From an uncultured Rhodospirillaceae bacterium (GTDB lineage: Bacteria > Pseudomonadota > Alphaproteobacteria > MPNO01 > UBA830): a DNA stretch of 64,000 nt. Below, piece by piece: positions 37,602 through 59,496 of this stretch. Numbering within the stretch: the first letter of the stretch is position 1; every line of letters starts with the position of its first letter. The position numbers and the translations under genes are program-made. The notes below the pieces were generated by a model that was not told the DNA's origin, ran no database searches, and was given only the letters and a program-made list of their open reading frames with translations. The DNA is taken from NCBI GenBank assembly GCA_963974055.1, contig CAXBCP010000004.1, positions 69,397-133,396 on the forward strand, written 5' to 3'.

Positions 37602-37607
37602 GTACAG

Positions 37608-38534: not shown

Positions 38535-38546
38535 CGGTTGACCATA

Positions 38547-39359: not shown

Positions 39360-39394
39360 ACTTTTCGTCCTGCTGAGTTTAAATGCTCACCGTT

Positions 39395-40883: not shown

Positions 40884-42407
40884 ATGTCCAGTCAGAATGC
40901 CGGCGCCGACACGCTTACCTGCCTGGCGGGCGGCACCGTTTACACTTTCGACGGGGAAAGCCGGGTTATCGAGGGCGGCGAGGTCTGGATGTCGGGCGCG
41001 CGCATCGTTGCGGTAGGGGCGGCCGGAAGCTTTCCGGCGCCGCATGACCGTGTAGAGCGCATCGACGTTTCGGGTCGCATGGTCATCCCGGGGCTGATCA
41101 ACGCCCACACCCATTCCTATTCGGCATTACTGAAGGGCTCGGTCGAAAGCGAGCCGCTGGATATCTACATGTTGTCGGTCATTGCGTCCGGCGCGGCGAT
41201 GACCCCGCGGGAAATCTATGTCAGCGCGCAGCTCGACGCGTTGGCGATGATGCATACCGGGGTGACCGCAGCAATAGATCACTATTCGGAACGGCCGGCT
41301 CTGTCCGCCGACGGTCTGGGCGCGGTATGCGCGGCGTTCGAGGATATAGGCATGCGGGCAACCGTCGCGACGATGTTCGCGGACCGGCCCTATATCGATA
41401 CGGTGCCGGTCGACCGGGACGCCTTGCCGCCGGAAATCGTCGCCGCTGCCGCAGCCCATGCAGCGCCCGACGCCGCTGCCTATTTCGACATCATGGAAGC
41501 CGCCGTGTCCGGCGAGAAGGAAGATGCGCGTGTCCGGGTGATCCTGGGGGTCGACGGCCCGCAACGCTGCTCCGACCTGTTGATGGAAATGACCGGCGAC
41601 TTTCAGCAGCGGCATCGTTGCGGCCTGCATACCCACATGCTGGAAACCAAGACCCAGGCGGCCATGCGGTCCGCCGGCGGTCCCGGTTTCGTGCGGCGTA
41701 TGGCCGATCTCGGCATCCTCGACGACAAATCGTCTCTCGTGCATTTCGTCTGGTCGGACGAGGAGGATATCGCCGCTGCCGCCGATTCCGGCGTGACCGT
41801 CGTGCACTCGCCTTCTTCAAACGCCATGCTCGGCGCAGGCATAGCACCTGTTCTGCGCCTGCGGGCGGCCGGCATTCCCGTCGCCTATGGAACCGACGGT
41901 TCCAATTGCGGCCCGCCGGCGCTGCTCGAGAGCATGCGCCTGGGCTGTTATCTGATGCGTCTGACGGACCCTGAATTCGAATCCTGGCCCGATGCCCGCA
42001 CGGTTCTCGGCGAAGGGTATGCCGCCGGCGCCAGGGCGGTTGGCCGGGCGGGGGAAATCGGCGTCCTCGAGGCGGGCGCACGCGCCGACATCGCGGTGTT
42101 GAAGCCGGTCGATTACTGGCACCGCCCGATGGGCGATCCCTACCGGCATTTGCTGTACTACGAAAACGGCGCATCGACCGAACACGTTTGGGTCGATGGC
42201 CGGCAGGTGGTGGAATCGGGCCGTGTGACGACGATCGACGAAACGGCCCTGATCGCCGAGGCCACGGAAATCGCGGCGCGTCGGCGGAGCGGGACATCCG
42301 CCGCGGCAATGGCGGCGGTCGATGCGCAATACCCCGCCTTCCGGAAGATGATCCTGGACAACTTCACGAACGATATCGGGATCGACCGTCGCGTCACCCT
42401 TGGCTAA
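40884..42407 (+). CDS. TRZ/ATZ-family amidohydrolase (chlorohydrolase/aminohydrolase, guanine/cytosine-deaminase-like)
   Basis: INAHTHS metal motif, HTHMLETK, start refined to MSSQNAG (aa offset 36, GGAG RBS). Confidence 0.7.
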   Translation: MSSQNAGADTLTCLAGGTVYTFDGESRVIEGGEVWMSGARIVAVGAAGSFPAPHDRVERIDVSGRMVIPGLINAHTHSYSALLKGSVESEPLDIYMLSVIASGAAMTPREIYVSAQLDALAMMHTGVTAAIDHYSERPALSADGLGAVCAAFEDIGMRATVATMFADRPYIDTVPVDRDALPPEIVAAAAAHAAPDAAAYFDIMEAAVSGEKEDARVRVILGVDGPQRCSDLLMEMTGDFQQRHRCGLHTHMLETKTQAAMRSAGGPGFVRRMADLGILDDKSSLVHFVWSDEEDIAAAADSGVTVVHSPSSNAMLGAGIAPVLRLRAAGIPVAYGTDGSNCGPPALLESMRLGCYLMRLTDPEFESWPDARTVLGEGYAAGARAVGRAGEIGVLEAGARADIAVLKPVDYWHRPMGDPYRHLLYYENGASTEHVWVDGRQVVESGRVTTIDETALIAEATEIAARRRSGTSAAAMAAVDAQYPAFRKMILDNFTNDIGIDRRVTLG

Positions 42408-42431: not shown

Positions 42432-43346
42432 TCACGATTGCGTGGCGGCGCGGATTTGCGCCATGCCATCGACGATATGCTCTGCGAAGACGGCGGGTGC
42501 GACCGGCAGGTTGCGCCCCCGCAACTGGCCGAGCACCAGGTTTGCCGCGGGTGTGTCGCGCCGGTCGATGGCCCGCACGACGATGTCCGAGCCGACCCCG
42601 GGCGCCACGGCGCCGACTTCGATCTGGAAGGATACAAGGCCCGAATGGATCACCGAGCGGCGCAACATCTCGAACGAGTTCGATTCGACCGCGACCTGAA
42701 ACTGTATGCCGGTCCGGGCCGAAAACGCTTCCAGCAATTGACGTCCGCCGGTCGAACGGTCGGGCAGGGCTGCCGGAAAGGCCGCGCAACGGCGCAGACG
42801 CAGCGGCGATTCGGCAGCGAGCGGATGGTCGTGCGGTACCAGCGCGACAAGGCGTTGCTCCAGCGAAGCCAGTTGCTGGAACTGCATCAGTGGAACCGGG
42901 CTGAAAACGAGTACGAGGTCGACTTCGTAGGATGCGAGCGCCCGCTCCGCCTGTTCGTGGTCGACGACGCGGACTTCGAAATCGACCAGGGGGTAGTCCC
43001 GCCGGAACCTGCCGATCGCTTCGGGCATGAATTCCAGGGCGACGGCCTGGCTGCAGGCAATCCGGACGTGGCCGCGGCGCAGGCCCTTCAGGTCTTCGAT
43101 CCCGGATCGGAGCCGTTCGGCCTCGGCAAGCTGGTGGCGGGCATGTCCGACAAAAAGCTCTCCGGCTGCGGTCAGGCGCATGCCGCGTGCCGTACGTTCG
43201 AACAGTTTTGCATCCAGCTCCGCTTCGAGATCCTGTATCCGCCGCGTTAATGCCGATGCAGTGAAATTCAGCTGTTCCGCCGCCCGTCGTACCGATCCGG
43301 CGCGCGCGACGGTATCGACCAGTTCCAGAACCCGCATATGGCGCAT
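42432..43346 (-). CDS. LysR-family transcriptional regulator
   Basis: N-terminal HTH (VRRAAEQLNFTASALTRRIQDLE); start at MRHMRV (alt 43337). Confidence 0.8.
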   Translation of the reverse strand: MRHMRVLELVDTVARAGSVRRAAEQLNFTASALTRRIQDLEAELDAKLFERTARGMRLTAAGELFVGHARHQLAEAERLRSGIEDLKGLRRGHVRIACSQAVALEFMPEAIGRFRRDYPLVDFEVRVVDHEQAERALASYEVDLVLVFSPVPLMQFQQLASLEQRLVALVPHDHPLAAESPLRLRRCAAFPAALPDRSTGGRQLLEAFSARTGIQFQVAVESNSFEMLRRSVIHSGLVSFQIEVGAVAPGVGSDIVVRAIDRRDTPAANLVLGQLRGRNLPVAPAVFAEHIVDGMAQIRAATQS

Positions 43347-43381: not shown

Positions 43382-43402
43382 AGCGTTGCTGTTTTGGCAA
43401 CG
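43382..43402. promoter_or_regulatory. Perfect 7-bp inverted repeat GCGTTGC-N7-GCAACGC upstream of LysR gene in divergent intergenic region; candidate LTTR operator
   Basis: Read directly; second palindrome AGGAG-TCAT-CTCCT at 43424..43437. Confidence 0.3.
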
Positions 43403-43544
43403 CATTGGAAGAATTATAGCATTAGGAGTCATCTCCTTGCATTCCTAGAATTACCGTCGCCGACGCATCTGATCGAAGGTGTCCGAGGTGGGTAGTGCCG
43501 TGTATTTCTTATTATTATCAATATATTAGAGGAATCGTCGGAGA

Positions 43545-44294
43545 ATGTCCGACCAAGCCGATCGCCATATGAGTTTTGTCCGGCCCCTTCCGGTGCCCCG
43601 GCTGGCGACGTTTGCGGCGGATCCCGCGCCGGTCGATGTCGATCTCGCCCGTTCGGCGCTGGTGATCGTCGATATGCAGAACGATTTTATTCATCCCGAC
43701 GGCTGGTTTCCGGCAAGCGGGATCGATCCCGCGCCGCTATCTGCGGCCGTCCCGGCGGTTGCCGTCCTGGCGGATACCGCGCGCCGTGCCGGTATGCCGG
43801 TCGTCTGGGTCAATTGGGGCGTGCGTCCCGACCGTGCCAATCTGCCGGACAGTTTCGTTGCGCGGGCCGCGAATGACGGCGCCCGTCCGACATATGCCGA
43901 TCCGTCTCCGGCGGGGCAGGGACGAATCCTCGTTCGCGGCGACTGGGGCGCGGACGTCATAGACGAATTGCCGGTCGGCCCCGCGGACCTTGTCGTCAGC
44001 AAGCACCGCCCCAGCGGGTTTCCGGATACGGAACTGGACAGCGTGTTGCGCCTGCGCGATCTGACCACGCTGTTTTTCGCCGGTGTGAACATCGACCGCT
44101 GCGTCCTGGCGACCCTGATCGATGCGAGCGCGCGCGGCTATGACTGTGTGCTGGTCGCGGACGCCTGCGCCACATCGTCGCCGCCGCATGTCACCGATGC
44201 CGTCTGCCACATCGTCCGGCTGCTCTACGGCGTGACGGCCAATTCATCCGATATCTGCCCCGCCATTGCGGGCGCGACAGCCGGCAAAAGTTAA
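43545..44294 (+). CDS. Isochorismatase-like cysteine hydrolase (biuret-hydrolase BiuH-like family)
   Basis: LVIVDMQNDF Asp, conserved Lys, catalytic Cys in NIDRCVLATLIDA. Confidence 0.75.
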   Translation: MSDQADRHMSFVRPLPVPRLATFAADPAPVDVDLARSALVIVDMQNDFIHPDGWFPASGIDPAPLSAAVPAVAVLADTARRAGMPVVWVNWGVRPDRANLPDSFVARAANDGARPTYADPSPAGQGRILVRGDWGADVIDELPVGPADLVVSKHRPSGFPDTELDSVLRLRDLTTLFFAGVNIDRCVLATLIDASARGYDCVLVADACATSSPPHVTDAVCHIVRLLYGVTANSSDICPAIAGATAGKS

Positions 44295-44320
44295 ACGACA
44301 CGAACGGGAAAACGAAAAGC

Positions 44321-45115
44321 ATGGATCTCAATCTGAAAGACCGGGTGGCCATCATCACCGGCCCCGCGAAGGGCATGGGCGCCGCGGTGAGCCGGCAGTT
44401 CGCGGCCGAGGGCTGCAGGCTTGTCCTGATCGGCCGCGACACGGCGGCGATCGAGCCGGTTGCGGACGAGGTGCGCAGCAAAGGCGGCGAAGCCGTGATC
44501 GGCGCCTGCGACATTACCGATTCCGACGCCTGCGAACAGGCGGCGGCCCTTGCCCGCGAGAGCTTCGGCGGGCGCATCGACATCCTCGTCAATATCGCCG
44601 GCGGGTCGGGGCCCATCGGCAAGACCGGGGCGGAAACGACCGCGGCGGAATTCGACGAGATCGTGACGCTCAACGTCAATGGCTGCTTCCATACCATACG
44701 CGCCGTCGCGCCGACGATGATCGACCAGAAATTCGGCAAAATCGTCAATGTCGGCGGCACTTTCGGGATGCGCGGGCGGGCCGGACGGCTCGCCTATTCG
44801 TCGTCGAAATGGGGATTGCGCGGCGTCACCAAGAGCTTCGCGCTCGAACTCGGGCCGAGCAATATCAACGTGAACTATGTCGCGCCGGGCATGGTCGACG
44901 GCCCCCGCTTCCGCGACAAGGTGTGCGCAAACATGGCGAAGCAGCGCGGTATCACGCCGGAAGAAGCGGCCGCCATACATGCAGAGGATTACGCCCTGCG
45001 CCGCATCACCCAGGATACGGATGTCGCGAATGCGTGCCTGTTCTTCGCCAGCGATGTATCGCGCCAGATCACGGGCGCGGATCTCGCCGTCGACGGCGGC
45101 TGGGCGTCTCTCTGA
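44321..45115 (+). CDS. SDR-family oxidoreductase
   Basis: ITGPAKGMG cofactor motif, YSSSK catalytic motif. Confidence 0.85.
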   Translation: MDLNLKDRVAIITGPAKGMGAAVSRQFAAEGCRLVLIGRDTAAIEPVADEVRSKGGEAVIGACDITDSDACEQAAALARESFGGRIDILVNIAGGSGPIGKTGAETTAAEFDEIVTLNVNGCFHTIRAVAPTMIDQKFGKIVNVGGTFGMRGRAGRLAYSSSKWGLRGVTKSFALELGPSNINVNYVAPGMVDGPRFRDKVCANMAKQRGITPEEAAAIHAEDYALRRITQDTDVANACLFFASDVSRQITGADLAVDGGWASL

Positions 45116-45137
45116 AAATCCGGGAAGGAAACGAATT

Positions 45138-46571
45138 ATGACGACGACTGCGGATCTGGTTATTTCGGGCGGCACGCTGGTTTTCCCCGATTCCGAGGTG
45201 ACGGCGAGCATTGCCGTGAAAGACGGCAGGATCATCGCGATCGGCGCGGCGGACGCCATGCCGCCTGCCGATGACAGGCTCGATGCGACCGGTATGCATG
45301 TGCTGCCGGGTGCTATCGATTCCCATGTCCACTTCCGGGAGCCGGGATATACCCACAAGGAAGACTGGGGGTCCGGCACTGCCGCCGCCGCGATGGGGGG
45401 CGTGACGACGGTGTTCGAAATGCCCAACGTCAACCCGCCGACCGGCACGGCCGAAACGCTCCGTCAGAAGCACGAACTTGCGGCAGAGAAAGCCCATGTC
45501 GATTTCGGCATATACGGCCTGCTGTCCGAACAGAACCTGGACGACCTGCCGGACCTGATCGCCGGCGGCATCATCGGGTTCAAGTGTTTCATGGGGAATA
45601 CCTTCGGCGATCTGCCGGCGCCATCGACCGGCGCCATGCTCGAAGGGTTCGAATATGTCGCCCAGCACGGCTATCGCGTTGCGCTTCATGCCGAGACGGC
45701 ATCGATCATGGCGCGGCGCCAGACCCAGCTTGAAGCGGCAGGGCGGACCGACCCCCTGGCGCACCTTGCCGCCCGCCCGGCGGTGGTCGCGATCGAAGCG
45801 GTCGGCCGCGCCGCCGTGCTGTCCGAATGGACCGGCGCGCGCATTCACATTCTGCATATTTCGTCCGAGGACGAACTGCGCCCGCTGCGCGAAGCGAAAG
45901 CCCGCGGCGTCGATATCAGCGGCGAGACCTGCCCGCATTACCTGCTGCTGGATTCGGACGATTACGAACGGTGCGAAGGCGTCATCCGCGTCAACCCGCC
46001 GGTTCGCGAGCCGCATCACAAATCGTCGCTATGGTCGGCGCTTGCCGACGGCACGATCGACATGATCGCCACCGACCATGCGCCGCATGTGCCGGAGGAA
46101 AAACAGCGCGACAGCATCTGGACCTGCGATTGCGGTTTCCCGGGGGTCGAAACACAGATGCCGCTGATGCTGAGCGAGGTTGCCGCCGGCCGTATATCGA
46201 TTCAGGACTACGTGCGCTGGACCGCCTACAACCCTGCCAATCGCTGGGGCCTTTATCCGCGGAAGGGCGCGCTTCAGCCCGGCGCCGAAGCGGATATCGT
46301 CATTGTCGACCTGAACCGCGAGGAAGTCATCGTCGATGAAAGCCTGCATTCGCGGGCGAAAATCACGCCGTGGGACGGCCGTCCGGTCAAGGGCGTGCCC
46401 GTGCATACGCTGGTGCGCGGACGGTTCGTGATGCGCGACCGCGTGCTGAACGACGCGGCGCGCGGCTGGGGCCAGTCCGTGCATTCGATCCAGAAGATGC
46501 CGCCGCCGGAGCCGAAACATACAGACGAAACGATCGCGGTACAGACCGGTCCCGGCCCCTGGTCGGTGTAG
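45138..46571 (+). CDS. Cyclic amidohydrolase (dihydropyrimidinase/allantoinase/hydantoinase/dihydroorotase class)
   Basis: Start at MTTTADLVISGG (aa offset 87); GAIDSHVHFREPG metal motif, carboxylated-Lys region FKCFM. Confidence 0.8.
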   Translation: MTTTADLVISGGTLVFPDSEVTASIAVKDGRIIAIGAADAMPPADDRLDATGMHVLPGAIDSHVHFREPGYTHKEDWGSGTAAAAMGGVTTVFEMPNVNPPTGTAETLRQKHELAAEKAHVDFGIYGLLSEQNLDDLPDLIAGGIIGFKCFMGNTFGDLPAPSTGAMLEGFEYVAQHGYRVALHAETASIMARRQTQLEAAGRTDPLAHLAARPAVVAIEAVGRAAVLSEWTGARIHILHISSEDELRPLREAKARGVDISGETCPHYLLLDSDDYERCEGVIRVNPPVREPHHKSSLWSALADGTIDMIATDHAPHVPEEKQRDSIWTCDCGFPGVETQMPLMLSEVAAGRISIQDYVRWTAYNPANRWGLYPRKGALQPGAEADIVIVDLNREEVIVDESLHSRAKITPWDGRPVKGVPVHTLVRGRFVMRDRVLNDAARGWGQSVHSIQKMPPPEPKHTDETIAVQTGPGPWSV

Positions 46572-46604
46572 GCCTGCCGTGAACAGTCCCACGCCGAAAT
46601 TGTC

Positions 46605-47723
46605 ATGCCGCTAGCCCGTATCCACCGCATTGCCGCCGCGGCACCGGACGACATGTCGGGAATCGAGGCGGCCATTGCGTCCGGCGGGCTCAACCCGGGC
46701 GGGGTCATCGCGGTATTCGGCAAGACCGAGGGCAACGGCCTCGTGAATGATTTTTCACGCGGTTTTGCCGTTCAGTCGCTGCGCCTGCTTTTCGAAAAGT
46801 ACCTGGCCGCCGCCGATGCAGCGGCGATCTGTTCGGTCATGTCGGGCGGGACCGAAGGCGGGCTCTCGCCGCACTGGCTGGTGCTGGAACGGATCGATGG
46901 TCCCGGCGATCGCGCCGATACTGGACCTGCCCTTGCCATCGGCAGAGCGCATACCGCCGACCTTGCGGCGGAACATCTCGGGCGCCCCGAACAGATCGAC
47001 TTGGTCGCCGCCGGCGTCGCCGACGCGATGCAGGAAGCCGGAATCGCGGATCCCGGCGAAGTTCACTTCGTCCAGATAAAGTGCCCGCTTCTGACCGCCC
47101 GGCGGATTGCCGCCGCCGAATCCCGGGGGCGGACCGTCGCGCTGCGCGACACGCTCAAATCGATGGGCGCGTCGCGCGGTGCCAGCGCGCTCGGTGTCGC
47201 CGTCGCGCTTGGCGAAATCGACCGCGCTGAGATAACGCCGGACCGCATCGTGAACGATCCGTCGCTGTGGTCGGGCCGCGCCAGCACGTCATCGGGCATA
47301 GAACTGATGAACCATGAAATCGTGGTCCTCGGCATGTCGGCCGCATGGTCGGGGTCGCTCGCGATCGACCACGCGGTGATGGCGAGCGGAATAGATACCG
47401 AACCGGTCCGCGCGGCGCTGGGCCGTCTCGGGCTGAACACTGACGGACAGCTTTCCCCGGCCGACCGGTCTCGGCTCGTCGCGCTGCTGGCCAAGGCAGA
47501 AGCCAGCCGCAACGGGTTGATCGGCGACAGACGCCATACCATGAACGACGATTCCGACATTTCATCGACCCGCCACGCGCGGGGTTTCGTTGCAGGCGCC
47601 CTTGGCGGCCTTGTCGGTCATACGGAAATTTTCGTTTCGGGTGGTGCGGAACACCAGGGCCCGGACGGCGGCGGGCCGGTCGCGGTAATCGTCGATAAAT
47701 CCGGAGGAAACGAACATGACTGA
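46605..47723 (+). CDS. Ring-opening amidohydrolase of the AtzD/TrzD/barbiturase family (cyanuric acid hydrolase or barbiturase)
   Basis: 372 aa; three-repeat architecture with family hallmark motifs KTEGNG, MSGGTEGGLSPH, HFVQIKCPLL, MGASRGASALGVA, SGGAEHQGPDGGGP. Confidence 0.8.
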   Translation: MPLARIHRIAAAAPDDMSGIEAAIASGGLNPGGVIAVFGKTEGNGLVNDFSRGFAVQSLRLLFEKYLAAADAAAICSVMSGGTEGGLSPHWLVLERIDGPGDRADTGPALAIGRAHTADLAAEHLGRPEQIDLVAAGVADAMQEAGIADPGEVHFVQIKCPLLTARRIAAAESRGRTVALRDTLKSMGASRGASALGVAVALGEIDRAEITPDRIVNDPSLWSGRASTSSGIELMNHEIVVLGMSAAWSGSLAIDHAVMASGIDTEPVRAALGRLGLNTDGQLSPADRSRLVALLAKAEASRNGLIGDRRHTMNDDSDISSTRHARGFVAGALGGLVGHTEIFVSGGAEHQGPDGGGPVAVIVDKSGGNEHD

Positions 47724-48957
47724 TTCCATCGCCGCCTTTCTCGACGCCGAGCAGGATCGCCAGACAGGCTTTCTCGCCGAACTGGTGAAAATCCCCACCG
47801 ACAATCCTCCCGGCGATTGTGCGGCCCATGCGGAACGCGCCCGGGCATTGCTGCAGGATTTGGGTTTCGAAGTTGAAGCGCATCCGGTTCCCGAAATGAA
47901 TGTCCGTGCGGCAGGCATGAAATCCGTAACAAACCTGATTGTCCGTCACCGGTTCGGCGATGGCCCGACGATTGCGCTCAACGCCCATGGCGATGTGGTG
48001 CCGCCCGGGCTCGGCTGGTCGCACGATCCCTATGGTGCCGAGATCGAGGAATCGGAGGATGGAAAACGCATGTTCGGCCGGGGCGCCGCCGTCTCCAAGT
48101 CTGATTTTGCGAGCTACGCCTGGGCGCTGCTGGCGCTTCGGTGTGAAGCGGAACAGGGCGCAGAATATGCAGGGACCGTAGAGCTTCACTTCACGTACGA
48201 TGAAGAAATCGGCGGCACGGTCGGCCCGCAATGGATACTGGAACAGGGGCTCTCGGAGCCGGACTATGTTATCTGCGCCGGGTTTTCGCATGCGATCATT
48301 ACCGCCCATAACGGGTGTCTGCATCTCGAATTGACGGTGACCGGAAAGATCGGTCATGCCGCCGAACCCGATAGGGCGGTCGATGCGCTGCAGGTGACGA
48401 ATTCGGTGCTATCGGCCCTGTACGACCATCGGGACGAACTGGCCCGCATCCGCTCGACGGTGCCTGGAATCGTCTCTCCGACGCTGGTCGTCGGCACGAT
48501 CGAAGGCGGAATCAATACGAACGTCGTTCCCGACCGGGTGACGCTGCGCGTCGACCGGCGGGTGCTGCCCGAAGAATCGATCGACGTTGTGGAACAGGAA
48601 CTGGGCGATCTTGTGCATCGCGTGGTCGGCATTTATCCGGGCGCGGGCGTGTCGGTCCAGCGCATCATGTCGGCGCGTCCTTTGTCGCCGCAGCCCGGCT
48701 GGGAGAAAATCGCCGAGGCCCTGCGCCGGCACGCCGCCGCTTTGACCGGCGAAGAGGTGCCGTATGTCGGCGCAAAGCTGTTTACTGATGCCCGTCTCTA
48801 TTCGGAGAAAGGGATACCGGTCGTGCTCTACGGTGCCGGCCCGCGCACGCTCGGCGAGGCCGGCGGGCATAACAGTGATGAAAATCTCGATCTTGCGGAC
48901 CTGCGCCTCGGAACCGAGGTTGTCGCCCGGGCGGTGGCCGACCTGTTGACGCCCTAG
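47716..48957 (+). CDS. M20-family metallo-amidohydrolase (ArgE/DapE/N-carbamoyl-amino-acid amidohydrolase-like)
   Basis: 413 aa, metal-binding HGDVV and EE(I)GG motifs. Confidence 0.8.
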   Translation: MTDSIAAFLDAEQDRQTGFLAELVKIPTDNPPGDCAAHAERARALLQDLGFEVEAHPVPEMNVRAAGMKSVTNLIVRHRFGDGPTIALNAHGDVVPPGLGWSHDPYGAEIEESEDGKRMFGRGAAVSKSDFASYAWALLALRCEAEQGAEYAGTVELHFTYDEEIGGTVGPQWILEQGLSEPDYVICAGFSHAIITAHNGCLHLELTVTGKIGHAAEPDRAVDALQVTNSVLSALYDHRDELARIRSTVPGIVSPTLVVGTIEGGINTNVVPDRVTLRVDRRVLPEESIDVVEQELGDLVHRVVGIYPGAGVSVQRIMSARPLSPQPGWEKIAEALRRHAAALTGEEVPYVGAKLFTDARLYSEKGIPVVLYGAGPRTLGEAGGHNSDENLDLADLRLGTEVVARAVADLLTP

Positions 48958-50141
48958 TCGGGCTGACGGGCCGTCAGGGCGCGTTTCAGCAGGCCGAAAA
49001 GAGACCGTAACAGCAGGGAAAACCCGCCGATAGTCGCGGTTCCGAGGTCTTCGGGAAGGTCGGCGCCGGTCGCCCGCGCCGCCAGCGCAACGGAAATATC
49101 CGCCAGTAACCGGTCGGCGATTTCGGCGACCAGGGCCGGGCGTCCGAACTGGGCGAGCGGCCCGTTGAGCCGGTAAACCATATTCAGTTCGAGCGTGGAC
49201 CGCCCCGCCCGGTTTTCGGTAAGCGTGAAATCGAGGCATCCTTCGAGACTGGACCGGCTGAGCGCGTCCTGTCCCCTGCCCACGACCTGTCCCGTCCGCG
49301 CCGCATCATCAAGCGCAAGCGCTGCCGTCCCCCGGAAGGTCGCCTTCATCGGGCCGACGTGGACTTCGCAGACCCCATCGAACATGCCGTTCTTCGGCGA
49401 TGTCTCGAGCCTGGCGCCGGGAATGCAGGAAACGACTTTTTCCGGATCCTGCAAAATTTTCCAGACGTTATCGACCGGCGCGTCGAGGTCAAGCCGGCGT
49501 GGAATCGTAACGCCGGTGCTCAACGATTCGCGGGTCGGCAGGGAACCGTCGGTCGGCGCTGCCGGAGACGTGCCTGCATGAGATTCGGCTGAAACTTGGG
49601 GCTTCCCCACGCCGGCAGGCCCTGTAGCAATCGGCCGGTGTCGGCGCGGGGCCGGTACGAGCTGCGCCGCCGGCGGGTCGTTCGCCAGGACCTCGGCGAT
49701 CGCAGCGACAATCCCGGCATAGCCGGTGCATCGGCACAGATTGCCCGACAGTTCGCGGCGGATGGCCGCTTCGTCCGAATCGGGCGCGCGGCGGACGATA
49801 TCGTATGCGGTCGCCAGCATGCCGGGGGTGCAATACCCGCATTGCAGCCCGTGCTTGCTTGAAAACGCCTCGCGAATACGCGTCATGAGCGGATCGTCGC
49901 CGAATCCCTCCACCGTCCGGATATCGGCTTCCTGGCAGGAAACCGCCAGGGTGATGCAGGACCGGACGGGCCGGCCGTCGATCATCAGGGTGCATGCGCC
50001 GCAGACTCCCTGTTCGCAGCCGAGATGTGTGCCGGTAAGCAGCAGTTCCTCGCGCAGGAAGTCGGCGAGGTGGGTCCGCGGCTCGGCGCTGCCGGTCACG
50101 GTCCGGTCGTTCACGGTAAGCGTAATGTCGGAATAGCTCAT
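48954..50141 (-). CDS. Xanthine-dehydrogenase-family 2Fe-2S small subunit (CoxS-like) fused to C-terminal CoxG/SRPBCC domain
   Basis: Start at internal Met MSYSDITL (aa offset 303 of 698-aa track ORF; ATGA overlap with FAD-subunit stop); Cys clusters CEQGVCGAC and CGYC...CRCTGY; C-terminal VDNVWKILQDPEKVVSCIPG CoxG-like. Confidence 0.75.
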   Translation of the reverse strand: MSYSDITLTVNDRTVTGSAEPRTHLADFLREELLLTGTHLGCEQGVCGACTLMIDGRPVRSCITLAVSCQEADIRTVEGFGDDPLMTRIREAFSSKHGLQCGYCTPGMLATAYDIVRRAPDSDEAAIRRELSGNLCRCTGYAGIVAAIAEVLANDPPAAQLVPAPRRHRPIATGPAGVGKPQVSAESHAGTSPAAPTDGSLPTRESLSTGVTIPRRLDLDAPVDNVWKILQDPEKVVSCIPGARLETSPKNGMFDGVCEVHVGPMKATFRGTAALALDDAARTGQVVGRGQDALSRSSLEGCLDFTLTENRAGRSTLELNMVYRLNGPLAQFGRPALVAEIADRLLADISVALAARATGADLPEDLGTATIGGFSLLLRSLFGLLKRALTARQPD

Positions 50142-50950
50142 GCGTCCTGTGTCTCCTCGCCATGGGCGCGCGCCAGGGCGCGTTCGAGTGCCGCGACATG
50201 CATCGCGGTCGATTGCAGCGGCCGGCCCGCGAGCGCCTGCGCCACGCTGTCCGCCGCACTGACCCGTCCTTCGATCAGGCCTTCGGGGTCGGGCAGAACG
50301 GCGGGCGGCCCGCCGAGCGCGCCGAGCGCGCAGCGGTACCGCCTGTTTTCGGGGTCGATCAGCACGGCGGCGCTGGCCTTGGCGAATTCGCCGACCTGGC
50401 GCATGAATTTCCAGTATCCCCATTGTGCGGACGGGCCCGGGCGCGGCACTTCGACGGCGACCAGCAATTCCCGTTCGGCGAGATCCGTGGCGTAGGGGCC
50501 GGTAATAAACCGGTCCAGCGGAACGCGCCGCTCGCCGTCCGGACCTGCGACAATCGCGGTCGCGCACAGGCCGGTCATCACGATGACCCAGTCCGCCGCC
50601 GGGTCCGCATGGGCAAGGCTGCCGCCGATAGTGCCGCGGTTGCGCACGGCGCGGTGGGCGATGTTGCGCGCTGCGGCCTGCATCCAGCCACTCGTGGGGT
50701 CGGGCACCTCGCCGTCCTCGATCTCGGCATGGGTGGTGGCCGCGCCGAAACGGATATGATCGGGGCTTTCGGTGATCGCCCGCAATTCCGGCACGGTTGC
50801 GATATCGATCAGCCGGGCGGGCCGGGCAAGCCGCAGGTTCATCATCGGCCCGAGAGACTGGTTGCCGGCCATCGGCTTGTCGCCGGGTTCGGGGAGAAAC
50901 GCCTGCGCCAGGGTATCTGCGCGCGCGAAGTCGAATGCAGCTGCTTTCAT
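50138..50950 (-). CDS. Xanthine-dehydrogenase-family FAD-binding medium subunit (CoxM-like)
   Basis: 270 aa, FAD_binding_5-type N-terminus FDFARADTL...AGNQSLGPMMNLR. Confidence 0.8.
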   Translation of the reverse strand: MKAAAFDFARADTLAQAFLPEPGDKPMAGNQSLGPMMNLRLARPARLIDIATVPELRAITESPDHIRFGAATTHAEIEDGEVPDPTSGWMQAAARNIAHRAVRNRGTIGGSLAHADPAADWVIVMTGLCATAIVAGPDGERRVPLDRFITGPYATDLAERELLVAVEVPRPGPSAQWGYWKFMRQVGEFAKASAAVLIDPENRRYRCALGALGGPPAVLPDPEGLIEGRVSAADSVAQALAGRPLQSTAMHVAALERALARAHGEETQDA

Positions 50951-53325
50951 GACGTCTGTCCTCCGGTGCCTGCTTTTGCGAGCGCTTCGAGAATGCGTTC
51001 CGGGGTGAGCGGGATGTCCGACACCTCCGCCCCGAGCGGGCTGAGTGCATCGTTCACAGCGTTGGCGATGGCCGCCGGCGGGCCGATCGCGCCGCTTTCG
51101 CCGATGCCTTTCTGGCCGTAGCGGCTCAGCGGCGACGGCGTTTCCATATGGATGATCCTGACGGCCGGAATATCGCCAGCGACCGGCAGATGATAATCGG
51201 CCAACGTGGAGGCCAGCGGCTGGCCCGATCCGTCGAACGGCATTTCCTCGAACAGCGCGGTGCCGATGCCCTGTACCGTTCCGCCGTGGACCTGGCCGTC
51301 GACGACCATCGGATTGATCATCGTGCCGGCATCCTCGACGATAACGTAGTCGAGCAGTTCCACGCTTCCGAACCGCAGGTCGACACTGACTTTCACGGCG
51401 TGACAGGCATAGGAGAACGTGCCGGTATCCTGAACCGTCTTGTACCCTTCCGTGACCTCAAGCCCGCGCGGATCGACATCGTCGGGCAGGAGTTGCGGTT
51501 TCAGGTACCAGGTCTTCGCGACCTCCTCGACCGAGACGGAACTGCTGCCGAAATACGCCATGCCGTCGCGCAGGGTTATGTCGTCGGGCTTGGCCTGCAG
51601 CAGATGCGCCGCGATATTGCGGATGCGGTCGCCCAGCGCCGCGCTGGCGGCGGACACGGCGCCGCCGGCCATAACGATGCAGCGCGATCCCCAGGTGCCG
51701 GTGGAATAGGGCGTATAGGCGGTATCGCCGTGGACGACTTTCACCCTGGCGGGGTCGATCCCCAGTTCCTCGTAGGCGATCTGCGCCAGCGTCGTTTCCA
51801 GGCCCTGGCCGTGGCTGTGGACGCCGACCCGAAGTTCCAGGCCGCCATCCGGCGTCAGGCGCGCGCCCGCCTGCTCGAAGCCGGGAACCATGGGAATGCC
51901 CCAGCCGTGATAAACGGACGTGCCGTGGGCGCCCTGTTCGCAGAATATCGACAGGCCGACGCCGATGCGTTTGTCGCCGGTCTGTTCCGCCTGTTCGGCC
52001 CGGATCTCGTCGAGGCCGATGGCTTCGACGGCGCGCGTCAGCGCCTCCGGGTAGTTGCCGCTGTCGAAATACTTGTTGGTGATATTGGTGAACGGCATCG
52101 CCTCCGGTTCGACGAGATTGCGGCGGCGGATGGCTTCGGGCGTGATCTTCAGGTCGCGGGCAAGGGCGTCGACCAGTACTTCGAGCGCGAAGCACACGCC
52201 GGTACGCGCGACGCCGCGATAGGGCAGGATGGGCGGCTTGTTCGTCGCGACCGACCAGGTTTTGCAGCGATAACCTTTCAGGCGGTACGGGCCCGGCAGA
52301 ATGCTTGCGACCTGCGCCGATTCCAGGCAGGCGGAAAACGGATAGGTGGAATAGGACCCGGCATCGACAATGGCTTCGCAATCGACGGCCAGCAGTTCGC
52401 CGTCGGCGGCTGCATAACCGGTCACTTCGTAATGATGCTCGCGGCAATTCGCGCTGCCGGTCAGATGTTCGCGGCGGTCTTCGAGCCAGCGGATCGGCCG
52501 GTCCAGTTTCATCGCAAGCCAGGCGGCGCAGATTTCTTCGGCGAGCAGCTGGCTTTTGAAGCCGAACCCGCCGCCGACATCCGGGGCGATGATACGCACC
52601 TGGCCGTGATCGAGGCCGAGACAGCCGGCAAGTCCCGTGCGAACGATATGCGGAATCTGCGTGGCGGAATGAAGCGTCAGCATTTCGAGATTCCGGTCCC
52701 AGACCGCGACGACGCCGCGGCCTTCTATCGGCGCCATGCATTGCCGGGCGGTTCTGAACGTCCGCTTGACGATACTCGCGGCGCCTTCGATGGCCGCTTC
52801 GAAGCCGATGTCGACGGCGCTTTCGAGAAAGACGTTTTCATCCCAGTGTTCGTGGACCATCGGGGCGTCGGTATCGCGCGCCCGGGTCATGTCGTGCACG
52901 GCGGGCAGCTCTTCGAAATCGACCGCGATTCGTTCCACGAGGTCCTCGGCATGCGCCCGGGTGTCGGCAAGCCCGGCGGCAACCAGTTCGCCGACATAGC
53001 GAACCTTGGTATCGGCAAGGATGGGCTGGATCGAGCTGCGGAAACCCGGCAGGCCGGAATCGGCCTTGATCCCGGTCACACCGGTCAGGTCGTCCGCGGT
53101 AAAGACATGTTCGGAATTATCCGACGGTTTGACGATGTCGCCGATGCGGGCATGGGCGACGGGGCTGCGCAGAAAGGCGAGTTCCAGCATTCCCTGCATC
53201 CGGATATCGCCGACATATCGTCCGCGCCCATGCAGGTAACGGTCGTCTTCCTGGCGCTTCAGGGAACTGCCGATGCCTTTTCCGTCCGGCGTTTTTTTGA
53301 CGTCTGTTTCCATTGGCGGCCTCAT
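50947..53325 (-). CDS. Xanthine-dehydrogenase-family molybdopterin-binding large subunit (CoxL/XdhA-like)
   Basis: 792 aa; N-terminal GSSLKRQEDDRYLHGRGRYVGD, aldehyde-oxidase/XDH a/b hammerhead and MoCo-binding blocks. Confidence 0.85.
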   Translation of the reverse strand: MRPPMETDVKKTPDGKGIGSSLKRQEDDRYLHGRGRYVGDIRMQGMLELAFLRSPVAHARIGDIVKPSDNSEHVFTADDLTGVTGIKADSGLPGFRSSIQPILADTKVRYVGELVAAGLADTRAHAEDLVERIAVDFEELPAVHDMTRARDTDAPMVHEHWDENVFLESAVDIGFEAAIEGAASIVKRTFRTARQCMAPIEGRGVVAVWDRNLEMLTLHSATQIPHIVRTGLAGCLGLDHGQVRIIAPDVGGGFGFKSQLLAEEICAAWLAMKLDRPIRWLEDRREHLTGSANCREHHYEVTGYAAADGELLAVDCEAIVDAGSYSTYPFSACLESAQVASILPGPYRLKGYRCKTWSVATNKPPILPYRGVARTGVCFALEVLVDALARDLKITPEAIRRRNLVEPEAMPFTNITNKYFDSGNYPEALTRAVEAIGLDEIRAEQAEQTGDKRIGVGLSIFCEQGAHGTSVYHGWGIPMVPGFEQAGARLTPDGGLELRVGVHSHGQGLETTLAQIAYEELGIDPARVKVVHGDTAYTPYSTGTWGSRCIVMAGGAVSAASAALGDRIRNIAAHLLQAKPDDITLRDGMAYFGSSSVSVEEVAKTWYLKPQLLPDDVDPRGLEVTEGYKTVQDTGTFSYACHAVKVSVDLRFGSVELLDYVIVEDAGTMINPMVVDGQVHGGTVQGIGTALFEEMPFDGSGQPLASTLADYHLPVAGDIPAVRIIHMETPSPLSRYGQKGIGESGAIGPPAAIANAVNDALSPLGAEVSDIPLTPERILEALAKAGTGGQTS

Positions 53326-53379
53326 TCGGGACGGGGTGCTGTCATTTCGCGTTTCGTTTCGTCGTGCATGCGGCGGGGA

Positions 53380-54378
53380 TCATGCGTCGGGAAGCGTCTG
53401 GGCTGCTGCCGTCGTGCTGTTGACCTTCATCCGCCTGTACTCGCCCGCCGGTACCGGGTCGTATTTCGCCGGTTGGTTGTCGGAACGACATGTTGGCAGA
53501 CATTCGATCACTGCATTGGGGTTCGGATAGGTGAAAAATGCGATCGATAACCGCGCCCCCGCGCTTTCGTCGCACGGCGGATTGGCGACCCGGTGCAGAT
53601 TTGAATGCCAGCGGTCGTTCGTCCACATTTTCATCATGTCGCCGATATTGATGATGAACCCGTTTGCGGGCGGCAGGGCATCTATCCAGTCGCCTGATTT
53701 CGTCAGCACCTGAAGCCCGCCCGGCGAATCATCGGCAAGGAGGATCGTGTGCGATCCGAAATCCGTATGCGCGCCGCAGCGCAGTTGGCCTTCTTCGGGG
53801 ATGTCGGTCTGCCCGGGATAGTGGAGAATTCTGACCACCGACGAGTGGTCGCGGAATTTCGTTTCGAAATAGTCCGGCGGCAGGTCGAGGGCCGTCGCAA
53901 ATATCTCCAGCAGTGTTTTGTTGAAATTCGCCACCGCGGTGTAATAGCTGCGGAATGCGTCCGCGACGTCCGGAAGCGCATCGGGCCAGATATTCGGCTG
54001 GTAGGCGTGGGCGGCGGCGGTGCCGGGCTGGATTCCTTCGGGCAGCTCAAGCGGACCGAAGATGTACCCTTCTCTGAGGTCGGCGGCGGCATTCGTGCCG
54101 GCCGACGCCGCATTGTGCTCTTCGGCGTAAGGGGTGTAGCCCCGGTTCAGATTATGCGACGGGTCCAGATAGGCCAGTTTGGCACCCAGCGGCAGGCCGA
54201 AAAACGTCCATGCACTTTCCCGTACCCGGTTGATCAGCGGGACCGGCACACCATGGCCGGTAATTGACAGGAAACCGATTGTCTCGACCGCATGCGCGAC
54301 GGCGGCGGCTATCTTCTTTCGGTCGGTATCGTCGCCATGGCTGAACGCGGCGATGTCGATGACGGGAATCCCACCCAT
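53380..54378 (-). CDS. 2-oxoglutarate/Fe(II)-dependent oxygenase (IPNS-like family)
   Basis: Start at MGGIPVIDI (aa offset 51; AAGGTG RBS); HTD...H facial triad (GAHTDFGSHTIL, WHSNLHRV). Confidence 0.8.
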   Translation of the reverse strand: MGGIPVIDIAAFSHGDDTDRKKIAAAVAHAVETIGFLSITGHGVPVPLINRVRESAWTFFGLPLGAKLAYLDPSHNLNRGYTPYAEEHNAASAGTNAAADLREGYIFGPLELPEGIQPGTAAAHAYQPNIWPDALPDVADAFRSYYTAVANFNKTLLEIFATALDLPPDYFETKFRDHSSVVRILHYPGQTDIPEEGQLRCGAHTDFGSHTILLADDSPGGLQVLTKSGDWIDALPPANGFIINIGDMMKMWTNDRWHSNLHRVANPPCDESAGARLSIAFFTYPNPNAVIECLPTCRSDNQPAKYDPVPAGEYRRMKVNSTTAAAQTLPDA

Positions 54379-54456
54379 ACAGTCACACCTTCTGTCGTAT
54401 CCGCGCCACGCTGCCGCAACGATAACATTGATTCGAGATGCAATGCACCAAGAGAA

Positions 54457-54533
54457 ATATTGCGCTGCAATATATACTTTCCGACGATGCTCTGATCCGC
54501 GGCCGTGCAATATCCGGGCGACGGCATGCAATT
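54457..54533. promoter_or_regulatory. Array of TGCAAT(A)T motifs including palindrome ATATTGC-GCT-GCAATAT, 80-155 bp upstream of oxygenase gene in 500-bp divergent region
   Basis: Read directly: palindrome 54457..54473; further TGCAATAT at about 54506 and TGCAATT at about 54527. Confidence 0.3.
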
Positions 54534-54874
54534 CGCGTCCATGTGCCTCAATTTTGGTCAGTCGTCCAAAGAATGCTCATGTCGATCAATTTCCGGCGGG
54601 ACGGCACCTGCCTGCCCGGACATCTTCCGGCGCCAGTCCGCAAGCGAACCCGTTGAAACCTATCGATAAATTCATGCGCCGCCCGGACGTCGCCGAGTTG
54701 GCATGGATATTGCACTGCACAACAGCGAGCGACCCTCCCTTTACGGGGTTGGCCGTTGCGGAACGACAGGGACTAAGGCTCGCGACCGGATCGCCGCCGG
54801 CCAGCCGGCACCGGATTCGGTGCTGACGACGGCCCGATCCTTGGCTGCTTGGTACACAATCAATGGAGAAGAAA

Positions 54875-55948
54875 ATGCGGAATTCTGTGAAGACGCTGAC
54901 GATCGCGATGGCGGCGATCGGGTTTGCGACCAGTGCGGTTGCAGCGGACGCCAAGTACGATCTCAAAATGACGACGACCACGCCCGAGGGCACGGTCACC
55001 TGGAAGATGTTCGCTGAGGACATTGAGAACAAGATCGCCATTGCGACCGACGGTGAGATGAAGATCCGGGCATATGGTTCGGGCGCGCTCGCGGGTCTCT
55101 TTGAAGGCCACAAGGCGGTGGCCGACGGCCGCGCGGATCTCGCGCATCAGTATCCGGCTTTTGAAATCAATCAGAGCCCGGCTTCGGCTTTCATCAGCGA
55201 CATTCCCGGCGGGATGGCTCCCGATGCAAAAATCATGTGGGTGCTGGCCGGCGGCGGCAAGGACCTGTGGGCAGGCTATCGCCACAGCCAGGGCCTTCAC
55301 GGCATGATCTGCGGCGCGATCGGCTCGGAAGTCTTCGCCCATTCGCACAAGAAAATCCAGACTCTGGCCGATCTGAAGGGCTTCAAATACCGTACGGCCG
55401 GTGCAAATACCCAGGTGATGCGCAAGCTTGGTGCGGCGCCCACGCTGGTTCCCGGACCGGAAGTGTTCACGCTGCTGGAGCGCAAGGGTGTCGATGGCGC
55501 CGAATATCTGGATCCCTACGGCAACAACTCGCTCGGCTTCCCGAAGATCGCCAAATACGTAATCCTGCCCGGCATTCATGCCCCGGGCGCGCTCTATGAA
55601 ATGCTGATGAAAAAATCGCTCTGGGACAGCTTTCCCAAGTCGATCCAGCAGAAGATGGAAATGGTCTGCGATTCCGTGCTGATCAATTCGTATGCCCTGA
55701 CCCTCGTCAATAACGTCAAGGCGATGAAGGCGATTGCCGCGAACACGACCAACGAAATCGTGACGCTCGACAAGGAAGTCGTCGACGCGATCCGTAAAGG
55801 CGGACGTGAGTGGGCCGCGGAAAAGTCCGCATCGGAAGCCAAAAAGGGCAACCCGTGGATGGGCAAGCTCGCCGAGAGCTACTACGCGTTCCAGGATGAA
55901 TGGAAAGCCAACTCCGCCTACCAGGTGATTGACGCTCAGTCCAAATAG
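54875..55948 (+). CDS. dctP: TRAP transporter substrate-binding protein (DctP family)
   Basis: Signal peptide, DctP-family length and conserved blocks; second ATG chosen (GGAGAAG RBS). Confidence 0.75.
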   Translation: MRNSVKTLTIAMAAIGFATSAVAADAKYDLKMTTTTPEGTVTWKMFAEDIENKIAIATDGEMKIRAYGSGALAGLFEGHKAVADGRADLAHQYPAFEINQSPASAFISDIPGGMAPDAKIMWVLAGGGKDLWAGYRHSQGLHGMICGAIGSEVFAHSHKKIQTLADLKGFKYRTAGANTQVMRKLGAAPTLVPGPEVFTLLERKGVDGAEYLDPYGNNSLGFPKIAKYVILPGIHAPGALYEMLMKKSLWDSFPKSIQQKMEMVCDSVLINSYALTLVNNVKAMKAIAANTTNEIVTLDKEVVDAIRKGGREWAAEKSASEAKKGNPWMGKLAESYYAFQDEWKANSAYQVIDAQSK

Positions 55949-56025
55949 GACGATTGCGGGCGGGCCGCGCCAAGGTGCGGCCCGTCTACCATCTTATCCC
56001 CGAGACGCCGCCGAAAGCGCATACA

Positions 56026-56568: not shown

Positions 56569-56571
56569 GGT

Positions 56572-57894: not shown

Positions 57895-57922
57895 TCGCGG
57901 TTCGATCGCGAGCGGCTGATAA

Positions 57923-59386: not shown

Positions 59387-59496
59387 AAACCCCTGCCGCT
59401 GAATCTCAAATTCTGTAAACGCCCCCACTTGACGGAGAACAGCTTTCCTCCGAGTGTTGAATCGGGTTCCCGCAGAGGGACCGATCGGGAGGAACA

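Follow-up and report, generated by a model that had tools for sequence, protein, structure and literature searches.

Gene organisation of the locus

The window analysed here, a 64,000 nt stretch of contig CAXBCP010000004.1 from an uncultured Rhodospirillaceae bacterium, harbours a cluster of genes around the open reading frame (ORF) 46605-47723, which is predicted to encode a cyanuric acid hydrolase (CAH), a ring-opening enzyme of the AtzD/barbiturase family. It is accompanied by genes putatively encoding an isochorismatase-family cysteine hydrolase (hereafter Iso), a short-chain dehydrogenase/reductase (SDR), a cyclic amidohydrolase and an M20 metallohydrolase (Table 1). Since the intergenic gaps from the Iso gene via the SDR and the cyclic amidohydrolase genes to the CAH gene comprise 19-33 nt and the end of the CAH gene overlaps the start of the M20 gene by 8 nt, these five genes form one operon. 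A gene predicted to encode a LysR-type regulator is oriented divergently from this operon. The region between the LysR and the Iso gene contains a block of about 45 nt (approximately positions 43411-43455, ATAnCATTAGnnGTCATC...TGCATTCCTAGAATT) which, according to the alignment, is common to the window and the metagenomic loci L081 and L082 (AtzD 83% identical) and represents a candidate LysR operator or promoter.

All genes listed in the initial annotation of this region were recovered by ORF listing and profile searches, and their coordinates needed small corrections only. In the case of the cyclic amidohydrolase the real start is the ATG at position 45138, while position 44877 marks only the start of the long ORF. 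The part of the window between 30 and 64 kb contains many amidohydrolase and hydantoinase/oxoprolinase genes as well as transporters. The designation of the region as an island could not be upheld in the sense of a mobile element, since the tRNA search of the window found none, the GC content of 0.58-0.67 shows no step across the window and no integrase is among the annotated window genes. A megablast search of the whole region against plasmids produced partial matches only, with 72-75% identity. The affinities of the sequence lie with Rhodospirillales/Azospirillaceae.

Table 1. Predicted genes and features of the ring-opening operon and its surroundings.
Feature	Position	Strand	Remarks
PRK09237-like metallo-amidohydrolase, in ABC importer operon (35507-40534)	35507-36748	-	Pfam/NCBIfam
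ABC importer permeases, two	37608-38534 and 36771-37601	-	Pfam/NCBIfam
ABC importer ATPase	38547-39359	-	Pfam/NCBIfam
NMT1/THI5-type binding protein of ABC importer	39395-40534	-	Pfam/NCBIfam
TRZ/ATZ-type (deaminase-like) amidohydrolase	40884-42407	+	507 aa; Amidohydro_1
LysR-type regulator	42432-43346	-	HTH_1 and LysR_substrate domains; gene call taken from L090
Divergent promoter/operator region (putative), LysR/Iso intergenic	43401-43544	.	holds conserved block of about 45 nt
Iso, isochorismatase-family cysteine hydrolase	43545-44294	+	249 aa; PF00857, 128 bits
SDR, classical	44321-45115	+	264 aa; PF00106 and PF13561
Cyclic amidohydrolase, dihydroorotase-like, binuclear-metal	45138-46571	+	477 aa
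CAH, AtzD/barbiturase 'Toblerone' family	46605-47723	+	372 aa; PF09663
M20 ArgE/DapE-type metallohydrolase	47716-48957	+	413 aa; PF01546 and PF07687
2Fe-2S subunit fused to CoxG/SRPBCC domain	48954-50141	-	395 aa; Pfam/NCBIfam
FAD subunit	50138-50950	-	Pfam/NCBIfam
CoxL-type/Qor-like Mo hydroxylase large subunit	50947-53325	-	Pfam/NCBIfam
2OG-Fe(II) oxygenase, heads molybdoenzyme operon (48954-54531)	53380-54531	-	Pfam/NCBIfam

The ring-opening enzyme

The proposed membership of the ring-opening enzyme in the AtzD/barbiturase family was confirmed by an end-to-end alignment with the profile PF09663 (463 bits), in which residues 6-364 of the protein matched positions 2-358 of the 358 profile positions, so that all three repeats are covered. 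The scores against TIGR02714 (388 versus a cut-off of 153) and against the NCBI equivalog model NF052395, CyanAcHdlAtzD (534 bits versus a cut-off of 360), exceeded the respective thresholds. Among its seven relatives in the PDB the top match was 4NQ3, the CAH of Azorhizobium caulinodans, with 448 bits. The five CAH structures scored between 448 and 292 bits, the latter value belonging to AtzD (4BVQ), while the barbiturase 5HWE ranked sixth with 234 bits and a third, orphan clade reached 199 bits.

Mapping on the structure revealed that 22 of 22 active-site residues are identical to those of 4NQ3. They include the Ser-Lys dyads K40/S80, K159/S229 and K297/S345, the glutamate E233, the arginines R52, R191 and R326, as well as T322, G346 and G347. 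The residues Ser226, Lys156 and Glu230 (4NQ3 numbering) are universal in the AtzD/barbiturase family (PMC4051656). The specificity signature proposed for CAHs by Peat 2013, which consists of Arg195, Thr321, Arg325, Gly345 and Gly346 in AtzD (PMC3758960), is matched by R191, T322, R326, G346 and G347. Barbiturases carry a Gln at the position of the domain-B arginine (Arg188 of 4NQ3) according to Cho 2014 (PMC4051656), whereas this position is occupied by Arg191 in the window enzyme. Furthermore, CAHs do not turn over barbiturate but are inhibited by it (PMC4051656). The prediction that ORF 46605-47723 encodes a genuine CAH and not a barbiturase is therefore firmly supported at the sequence level, and none of the sequence criteria used backs a barbiturase identity. 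Of the two substrates between which the initial annotation had left the choice open, cyanuric acid and barbiturate, the former is thus favoured as far as the CAH itself is concerned, and support for the cyanuric acid pathway is limited to this one enzyme.

An exhaustive HMMER search of 1.84 billion representatives assigned 1,477 clusters at 50% identity to the AtzD/barbiturase family, and at least 7,992 clusters were matched at 90% identity. Relatives of the CAH were found in at least 80 species-level genomes, nearly all of which belong to the Alphaproteobacteria. Its description as a rare family is hence appropriate with regard to its diversity, but not to its numbers.

Conservation of the gene arrangement

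Comparison of all window proteins with the 80 species-level AtzD loci by tblastn revealed a module of the SDR, the cyclic amidohydrolase and AtzD in 27 of these loci, and one further locus contained the SDR only. Across the module loci the identity to the window proteins amounts to 69-76% for the SDR and to 61-71% for the cyclic amidohydrolase, apart from one exception with 47%, and the LysR protein (47-62% identical) is encoded in the same divergent position. The genes usually follow the order LysR (divergent), in some cases Iso, an NMT1-type binding protein, SDR, cyclic amidohydrolase, ATPase, permease, a second binding protein, a TRZ-like amidohydrolase and AtzD. Orthologs of Iso were detected in a minority of the module loci, that of Azorhizobium among them. 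Annotated examples of the module are found on the plasmid pSR-2 of Skermanella rosea and on Azospirillum plasmids. Neither an ortholog of the M20 protein nor one of the CoxL-type subunit was detected in any of the 80 loci. The assumption that the combination with a cyclic amidohydrolase is unusual does not agree with these results, since roughly one third of the related species loci carry it as part of a conserved operon, among them the locus of the model Azorhizobium enzyme itself.

Another 27 of the 80 loci carry the canonical set of BiuH, TrtA-like and AtzE-like genes. In the two canonical loci tested (L030 and L059) the gene directly upstream of AtzD encodes a BiuH scoring 414 and 424 bits, respectively, and a TrtA-like paralog is encoded downstream. 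An AtzE-family amidase (673 bits) was identified in L030, the one locus tested for it, and homologs are present in many canonical loci. Furthermore, a gene for an AmiF-type formamidase (NF009803, 567 bits) is located directly upstream of the BiuH gene in 20 canonical loci (L018-L077, at about 8.2-9.2 kb). A tblastn search of the window with BiuH, the TrtA-like paralog, the AtzE-family amidase, the AmiF formamidase and the other conserved L030 genes yielded only weak matches to Iso (33-34%). AtzE/AtzG, AtzF, BiuH and TrtA are not encoded within the window; AtzH was not used as query. The module-type loci often possess a gene for an FmdA-type acetamidase/formamidase after AtzD, which is non-homologous to the AmiF-type enzyme of the canonical loci. 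The AtzD proteins of both types interleave in the phylogenetic tree, and no alignment columns separating module-type from BiuH-type AtzDs were found.

A homolog of the window Iso is annotated in A. caulinodans, and the contig encoding it (L088) carries the module in the order LysR, then Iso, binding protein, SDR, amidohydrolase, ATPase, permease, binding protein, amidohydrolase and AtzD. The product of the last gene of this operon is identical to 4NQ3/AZC_3892 in 354 of 354 residues, which are all residues that could be compared. The window proteins share identities of 58% (LysR), 60% (Iso), 76% (SDR), 67% (cyclic amidohydrolase) and 62% (AtzD) with their counterparts in L088. Based on the five orthologous genes and on the identity of the last gene with AZC_3892, the window harbours an orthologous, though rearranged, version of the operon to which a proven CAH belongs. 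The CAH is the sole member of the Azorhizobium operon studied so far, with regard to structure and kinetics (kcat 50 s-1, Km 370 uM; PMC4051656). In the literature found, which consists of two CAH structure papers only, the neighbours of AZC_3892 (locus tags AZC_388x-3892) are not mentioned, and literature searches on DUF3830 and on the combination of CAH, allantoinase and SDR found nothing.

Four metagenomic loci (L081, L082, L171 and L172) are close relatives of the window, with AtzD proteins 83-85% identical to that of the window. They have a unit of up to 12 genes in common which encode a binding protein, an ATPase, two permeases, a PRK09237-like protein, a 507-aa TRZ-type amidohydrolase, LysR, in some cases Iso, the SDR, the cyclic amidohydrolase, AtzD and M20. 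In all four loci the five genes of the ABC importer operon are collinear upstream of the module, whereas they are inverted in the window. The gene of the 507-aa amidohydrolase occupies the same position in these loci and in L090, a further contig that shares 99.5% identity with the window along 17.9 kb and therefore stems from the same organism. The M20 gene after AtzD was detected only in the window, L090 and the four close relatives. In the latter, M20 is followed by different genes in each case, namely HD/phosphonate-lyase genes, a gene for an MFS transporter, an IS240 transposase gene or a short ORF. The IS240-family transposase gene is located directly after M20 in L172 (12892-13587) and hints at a mobility of the 12-gene unit.

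In a second survey, metagenome contigs were anchored on the cyclic amidohydrolase, resulting in 24 informative loci. The SDR gene was adjacent in 23 of them, whereas AtzD was present in eight, a DUF3830 protein in ten, Iso in five and an FmdA-type acetamidase/formamidase in four. Azospirillum plasmids also carry the module without AtzD, and in S. rosea pSR-2 the module including AtzD is followed by genes for an FmdA-type amidase and a DUF3830 protein. Given the frequencies of the SDR and of AtzD in the anchored loci, it looks as if the pair of SDR and cyclic amidohydrolase together with the importer, LysR and the TRZ-like amidohydrolase constitutes the core of the system, and the CAH an add-on.

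Partner enzymes

Iso belongs to the group of BiuH, TrtA and RutB and retains the Asp-Lys-Cys triad. It reached 126 bits on the BiuH model NF050097 (cut-off 370) and 116 bits on the RutB model (cut-off 378). In BiuH the residues Lys145, Thr171 and Gln215 form hydrogen bonds with biuret, and the catalytic triad consists of Asp36, Lys142 and Cys175 (PMC5806882). In Iso, Lys145 is replaced by Pro and Thr171 by Asn, and Gln215 is lost in a two-residue deletion, while Arg residues are present two positions after the triad lysine, as in RutB, and directly in front of the cysteine. These replacements and the two arginines suggest an anionic ureido compound as substrate, and a role as BiuH, as implied by the comparison of folds in the initial annotation, is not backed by either the model score or the biuret-binding residues. 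Iso homologs sharing 54-56% identity were also observed in Lipomyces and Limtongia yeasts (P0178, P0193 and P0194), which is unusually high for a pair of bacterial and fungal proteins.

The cyclic amidohydrolase possesses the metal ligands H63, H65, K149, H184, H240 and D313. Dihydroorotases bind the alpha-carboxylate of carbamoyl-aspartate by an invariant triad of Arg, Asn and His (PMC12809426), and R67, N97 and H317 are located at the corresponding positions of the window enzyme. All 80 orthologs with at least 50% identity retain both the triad and the metal ligands without exception. In the allantoinases 3HM7 and 3E74 the position of the Arg is taken by Asn or Ser and that of the His by Ser or Cys, and an extra residue precedes the Asn. 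The enzyme nevertheless passes the model of allantoinase AllB narrowly (TIGR03178, 379 versus 358), its top match in the PDB is the allantoinase 3HM7, and its orthologs are named 'allantoinase AllB' or 'dihydroorotase family' in RefSeq. It also exceeds the cut-off of TIGR00857 (332 versus 279), but not that of PRK09060 (398 versus 482), and remains below the dihydroorotase equivalog cut-offs. Judging from its residues, the predicted binding site is dihydroorotase-like in spite of the narrow pass of the allantoinase model, membership in PyrC being unproven, and the earlier classification as dihydropyrimidinase/allantoinase-type enzyme does not match the predicted substrate site.

The SDR is among the best-conserved proteins of the module. 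Its matches in the PDB and NCBIfam are generic or below cut-off, as are those of the M20, the TRZ-type and the PRK09237-like protein, so that no substrate could be assigned to any of the four. The M20 protein is below all NCBIfam cut-offs and has DapE as top PDB match (74 bits). For the amidohydrolase 40884-42407 the best NCBIfam model is that of 8-oxoguanine deaminase (210 bits versus a cut-off of 532), and uncharacterised amidohydrolases and AtzA are the top PDB matches. The top PDB match of the importer binding protein (39395-40534) is ThiY, which binds formylaminopyrimidine (3IX1).

Neighbouring molybdoenzyme operon

The convergent orientation of the three-subunit genes of the xanthine dehydrogenase (XDH) type relative to the ring-opening operon was confirmed (- strand, 48954-53325). 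The M20 gene and the gene encoding the CoxS-CoxG fusion overlap by 4 nt at their stops (48954-48957), which leaves no intergenic room for terminators. The NCBIfam matches of the molybdoenzyme operon are all below the equivalog cut-offs, including those of the XDH equivalogs, and the top PDB match is quinoline 2-oxidoreductase (1T3Q, 493 bits). An assignment as carbon monoxide dehydrogenase was ruled out, as no active-site loop motif of the AYR...-type is present. A relative on plasmid pTT6-1 of Skermanella sp. TT6 shares 75% nucleotide identity over the genes of the large and the FAD subunit and is accompanied by a MarR regulator, and not by AtzD. In this strain the 2Fe-2S/CoxG fusion corresponds to a 2Fe-2S protein of comparable length (1137 nt).

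The molybdoenzyme operon is absent after M20 in L081, L082, L171 and L172, and L090 is the sole locus sharing it at this position. The lack of a CoxL ortholog in the 80 loci, the presence of other genes after M20 in the four relatives and the occurrence of the Skermanella relative without AtzD firmly support the prediction that the XDH-type genes form a separate, convergently abutting operon. The proposed link to a uracil dehydrogenase finds no support.

Predicted function and alternative explanations

ORF 46605-47723 probably encodes a true CAH, the counterpart of AZC_3892, as the fourth of five genes in a LysR-controlled alphaproteobacterial operon for the scavenging of nitrogen from cyclic ureides or s-triazine-type compounds. 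The gene comparisons firmly support the assignment of the operon as a rearranged version of one that is conserved across many Alphaproteobacteria and distinct from both known cyanurate pathways. Its role is likely to be the import of small cyclic ureides or s-triazine-type compounds and the removal of their nitrogen.

In the predicted pathway the NMT1-type ABC importer, which is encoded alongside the operon together with two further amidohydrolases, would take up cyclic ureides or s-triazine-type compounds, and the TRZ/ATZ-type enzyme may remove an exocyclic amino group. The SDR and the dihydroorotase-like enzyme would represent the core of the pathway, acting on a cyclic ureide which presumably carries a carboxylate beside a ring nitrogen as well as a group that can be oxidised or reduced by the SDR. 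The CAH would open the s-triazine-trione ring to 1-carboxybiuret by means of its Ser-Lys dyad and three-arginine active site, and could serve as an accessory funnel which directs cyanurate-derived carboxybiuret to the same ureido hydrolases. The cysteine hydrolase and the M20 enzyme, or the FmdA-type amidase in other species, may finally hydrolyse carboxybiuret, N-carbamoyl acids or similar anionic ureido products, which would yield NH3 and CO2.

Several points weigh against this interpretation. The roles of the window proteins were deduced from sequence, and cyanurate, for the Azorhizobium ortholog, is the sole known substrate of the operon (PMC4051656). The conversion of cyanurate to biuret does not need a redox step, which leaves the invariant SDR unexplained if cyanurate is the main substrate, and the Km of the Azorhizobium CAH given above compares to 23 uM for AtzD, so that a different preferred substrate is possible (PMC4051656). 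Many loci with the core of SDR and cyclic amidohydrolase lack AtzD, and the link between the core and cyanurate may thus be loose. Furthermore, the ABC transporter and the amidohydrolases of the window share 23-49% identity with those of the Azorhizobium-type operon and may be paralogs with another specificity. Finally, the architecture of the operon was not found described in the searched literature, which did not include Aukema et al. 2020 and Seffernick 2012 on CAH gene contexts, and it may have been described earlier.

A more specific scenario, which we consider rather improbable, would assign the operon to an undescribed catabolic route for s-triazines and related cyclic ureides which are formed naturally by the oxidation of urate, allantoin or guanine. 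The SDR would act as a reductase on the C=N bond of oxonate (5-azaorotate) or another carboxylated triazine, whose reduced ring would then be opened towards ureidoglycine by the dihydroorotase-like enzyme. The CAH would take cyanurate as a co-occurring oxidation product, and the ureido products would be finished by the cysteine hydrolase, the M20 enzyme or the FmdA-type amidase. Oxonate would derive from the oxidation of urate. It is speculative that this compound would unite the carboxylate and SDR-type features of the core. Cyanurate and triuret are likewise derived from urate oxidation (PMC7948467). An unlikely alternative is the canonical mineralisation of cyanurate, in which the CAH product biuret would be hydrolysed by Iso acting as BiuH, allophanate hydrolase would be encoded elsewhere and the SDR and the cyclic amidohydrolase would be bystanders. 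The genuine CAH, the affiliation of Iso to the BiuH/TrtA/RutB group with its conserved triad and the fact that most of the genome, which could hold atzF, lies outside the window are in line with such a route. It is, however, contradicted by Iso itself, which scores far below the BiuH cut-off and below the true BiuH proteins next to AtzD in the two tested loci and does not possess the biuret-binding residues of BiuH. Most module loci moreover lack Iso, while the SDR and the cyclic amidohydrolase are always present with identities of 61-76%, a pattern that does not suit bystanders.

M20 enzymes include allantoate amidohydrolases. Together with the AllB model score, the RefSeq names of several orthologs and the match to 3HM7, this would be compatible with an alternative allantoin/ureide pathway in which the cyclic amidohydrolase acts as allantoinase and the SDR as an analog of ureidoglycolate dehydrogenase, as AllB and AllD do in E. 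coli, while the other enzymes act on allantoate or oxalurate and the CAH is a passenger. We regard this pathway as very unlikely, since the substrate-anchoring positions of the cyclic amidohydrolase are occupied by the dihydroorotase triad, unlike those of 3HM7 and 3E74, and since the M20 protein is ArgE/DapE-like, with no AllC- or hydantase-type model among the 25 of 49 NCBIfam matches listed. The oxidative pyrimidine catabolism offered by the initial annotation as one of two readings, with an XDH-type enzyme converting uracil or thymine to barbiturate, the AtzD homolog as barbiturase and the other hydrolases as ureidomalonase, appears extremely improbable. A three-subunit Mo/FAD/FeS hydroxylase indeed adjoins the operon, and ThiY, the top structural relative of the ABC binding protein, binds a pyrimidine. 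This scenario is opposed by Arg191 in place of the barbiturase Gln within a full CAH signature, by the equivalog score and the low rank of the barbiturase among the PDB relatives and by the inhibition of CAHs by barbiturate. In addition, the molybdoenzyme genes accompany the module in none of the 80 loci and none of the four close relatives, and their products are nearest to quinoline 2-oxidoreductase.

Other gene blocks in the window

Beyond the ABC importer operon the window contains further gene clusters. The genes at 28266-35341, which are appended to the importer operon, are predicted to encode a PALP-type pyridoxal phosphate-dependent enzyme, two luciferase-like monooxygenases and an ATP-dependent hydantoinase/oxoprolinase consisting of HyuA (33266-35341) and HyuB (31530-33278). 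Apart from HyuA at the cut end of L090, they are absent from the module relatives. A route for creatinine/N-methylhydantoin employing HyuAB and Iso as an enzyme similar to N-carbamoylsarcosine amidase was rejected, since HyuAB is absent from the module relatives and Iso is far nearer to TrtA, RutB and BiuH than to 1NBA.

On the other side of the molybdoenzyme operon (54863-63527) a DctPQM TRAP system, a TRZ/ATZ-type amidohydrolase (57923-59386), a TAXI-type TRAP system (fused QM subunit 59497-61425, binding protein 61480-62538) and another LysR protein are encoded. The region 14-5754 harbours genes for the uptake of iron or siderophores, comprising a TonB-dependent receptor truncated at the end of the window, a periplasmic binding protein, a FecCD permease, an ABC ATPase and TonB. 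An aryl-polyene-like lipid biosynthetic cluster extends from 10300 to 26465. Its genes are predicted to encode a Ketoacyl-synt_2 protein, an acyltransferase, an AMP-ligase with an ApeI dehydratase domain, a GT2 glycosyltransferase and an aromatic amino-acid ammonia-lyase (16551-18116), as well as a 4HBT thioesterase, a LolA-like protein, an MMPL transporter, a DUF3261 protein, two ketosynthases, an ApeP dehydratase, a ketoreductase and a phosphopantetheinyl transferase.

Comparison with known systems

The CAH itself is one more member of a known enzyme family, while the architecture of its operon represents a variant of cyanurate catabolism that was not found described. CAHs have been studied for the remediation of herbicides and pool water, and the reason why soil Alphaproteobacteria carry them has been an open question, as cyanurate was long held to be man-made (PMC4051656). 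The window CAH and the crystallised Azorhizobium CAH share a widespread LysR-regulated operon with the SDR and an amidohydrolase with a carboxylate site as invariant partners. These partners, without BiuH, AtzE and AtzF in the window, point to an unrecognised natural substrate, which could be tested in a genetically tractable organism. If true, the assignment to oxidised purines and s-triazines would provide rhizobial CAHs with a natural role predating herbicides. The analysis also corrects likely mis-annotations, for example the name 'allantoinase AllB' given to the cyclic amidohydrolase and the assignment of a role like that of BiuH to Iso.

The pathways concerned had been described as sparsely characterised in proteobacteria, which does not apply to cyanuric acid, as its degradation has been described in Pseudomonas sp. 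ADP and Rhizobium leguminosarum (PMC5806882, PMC6219798). The atzDGEHF operon of Pseudomonas sp. ADP shares the first step, the enzyme family and the LysR-type control with the window (PMC6219798) and leads from cyanurate via carboxybiuret, 1,3-dicarboxyurea and allophanate to NH3 and CO2 (PMC6219798). The window differs from it in lacking the AtzE/AtzG amidase and AtzF, as well as homologs of the other genes conserved in canonical loci (the search did not include AtzH), while the SDR, the cyclic amidohydrolase, the cysteine hydrolase and the M20 protein have no counterpart in the atz operon. The AtzD-BiuH clusters of Rhizobium, Kaistia, Herbaspirillum and others, which may additionally contain TrtA/TrtB/AtzF or an AtzE-like protein, resemble the window in the location of the CAH gene beside that of an isochorismatase-family cysteine hydrolase (PMC5806882, PMC7948467). 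They are distinguished by a true BiuH (414-424 bits), a TrtA-like paralog, an AtzE-family amidase, an AmiF-type formamidase and an ABC ATPase of the sugar/nucleoside type, all of which are missing in the window.

The barbiturase of the oxidative pyrimidine pathway in Rhodococcus and Nocardioides (5HWE) has the fold and the kind of ring-opening chemistry in common with the window CAH, but belongs to a different clade (234 versus 448 bits), carries Gln instead of Arg, and the substrates of both enzymes are mutually exclusive (PMC4051656). The cyclic amidohydrolase shares the metal ligands, the position of the carboxylated Lys and the Arg/Asn/His triad with dihydroorotases of the type I/CAD-like group (PMC12809426), which belong to the carbamoyl-aspartate branch of pyrimidine metabolism. 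It differs from them in its location in a catabolic operon that is LysR-regulated, includes an importer and is often plasmid-borne, in its length (about 50 residues longer), in its pairing with the SDR and in scoring below the equivalog cut-offs.

The greatest similarity exists to the AZC_3892 operon of Azorhizobium, with which the window shares the CAH clade (about 62% identity, all active-site residues), the divergent LysR gene, Iso, the SDR and the dihydroorotase-like amidohydrolase. In Azorhizobium the ABC transporter genes and that of the TRZ-like amidohydrolase are interleaved in the operon, which ends with the CAH gene, whereas the five enzyme genes of the window lie in an uninterrupted row, the M20 gene is added and translationally coupled to the CAH gene, and a presumably paralogous set of transporter and amidohydrolase genes is located beyond LysR in inverted orientation.

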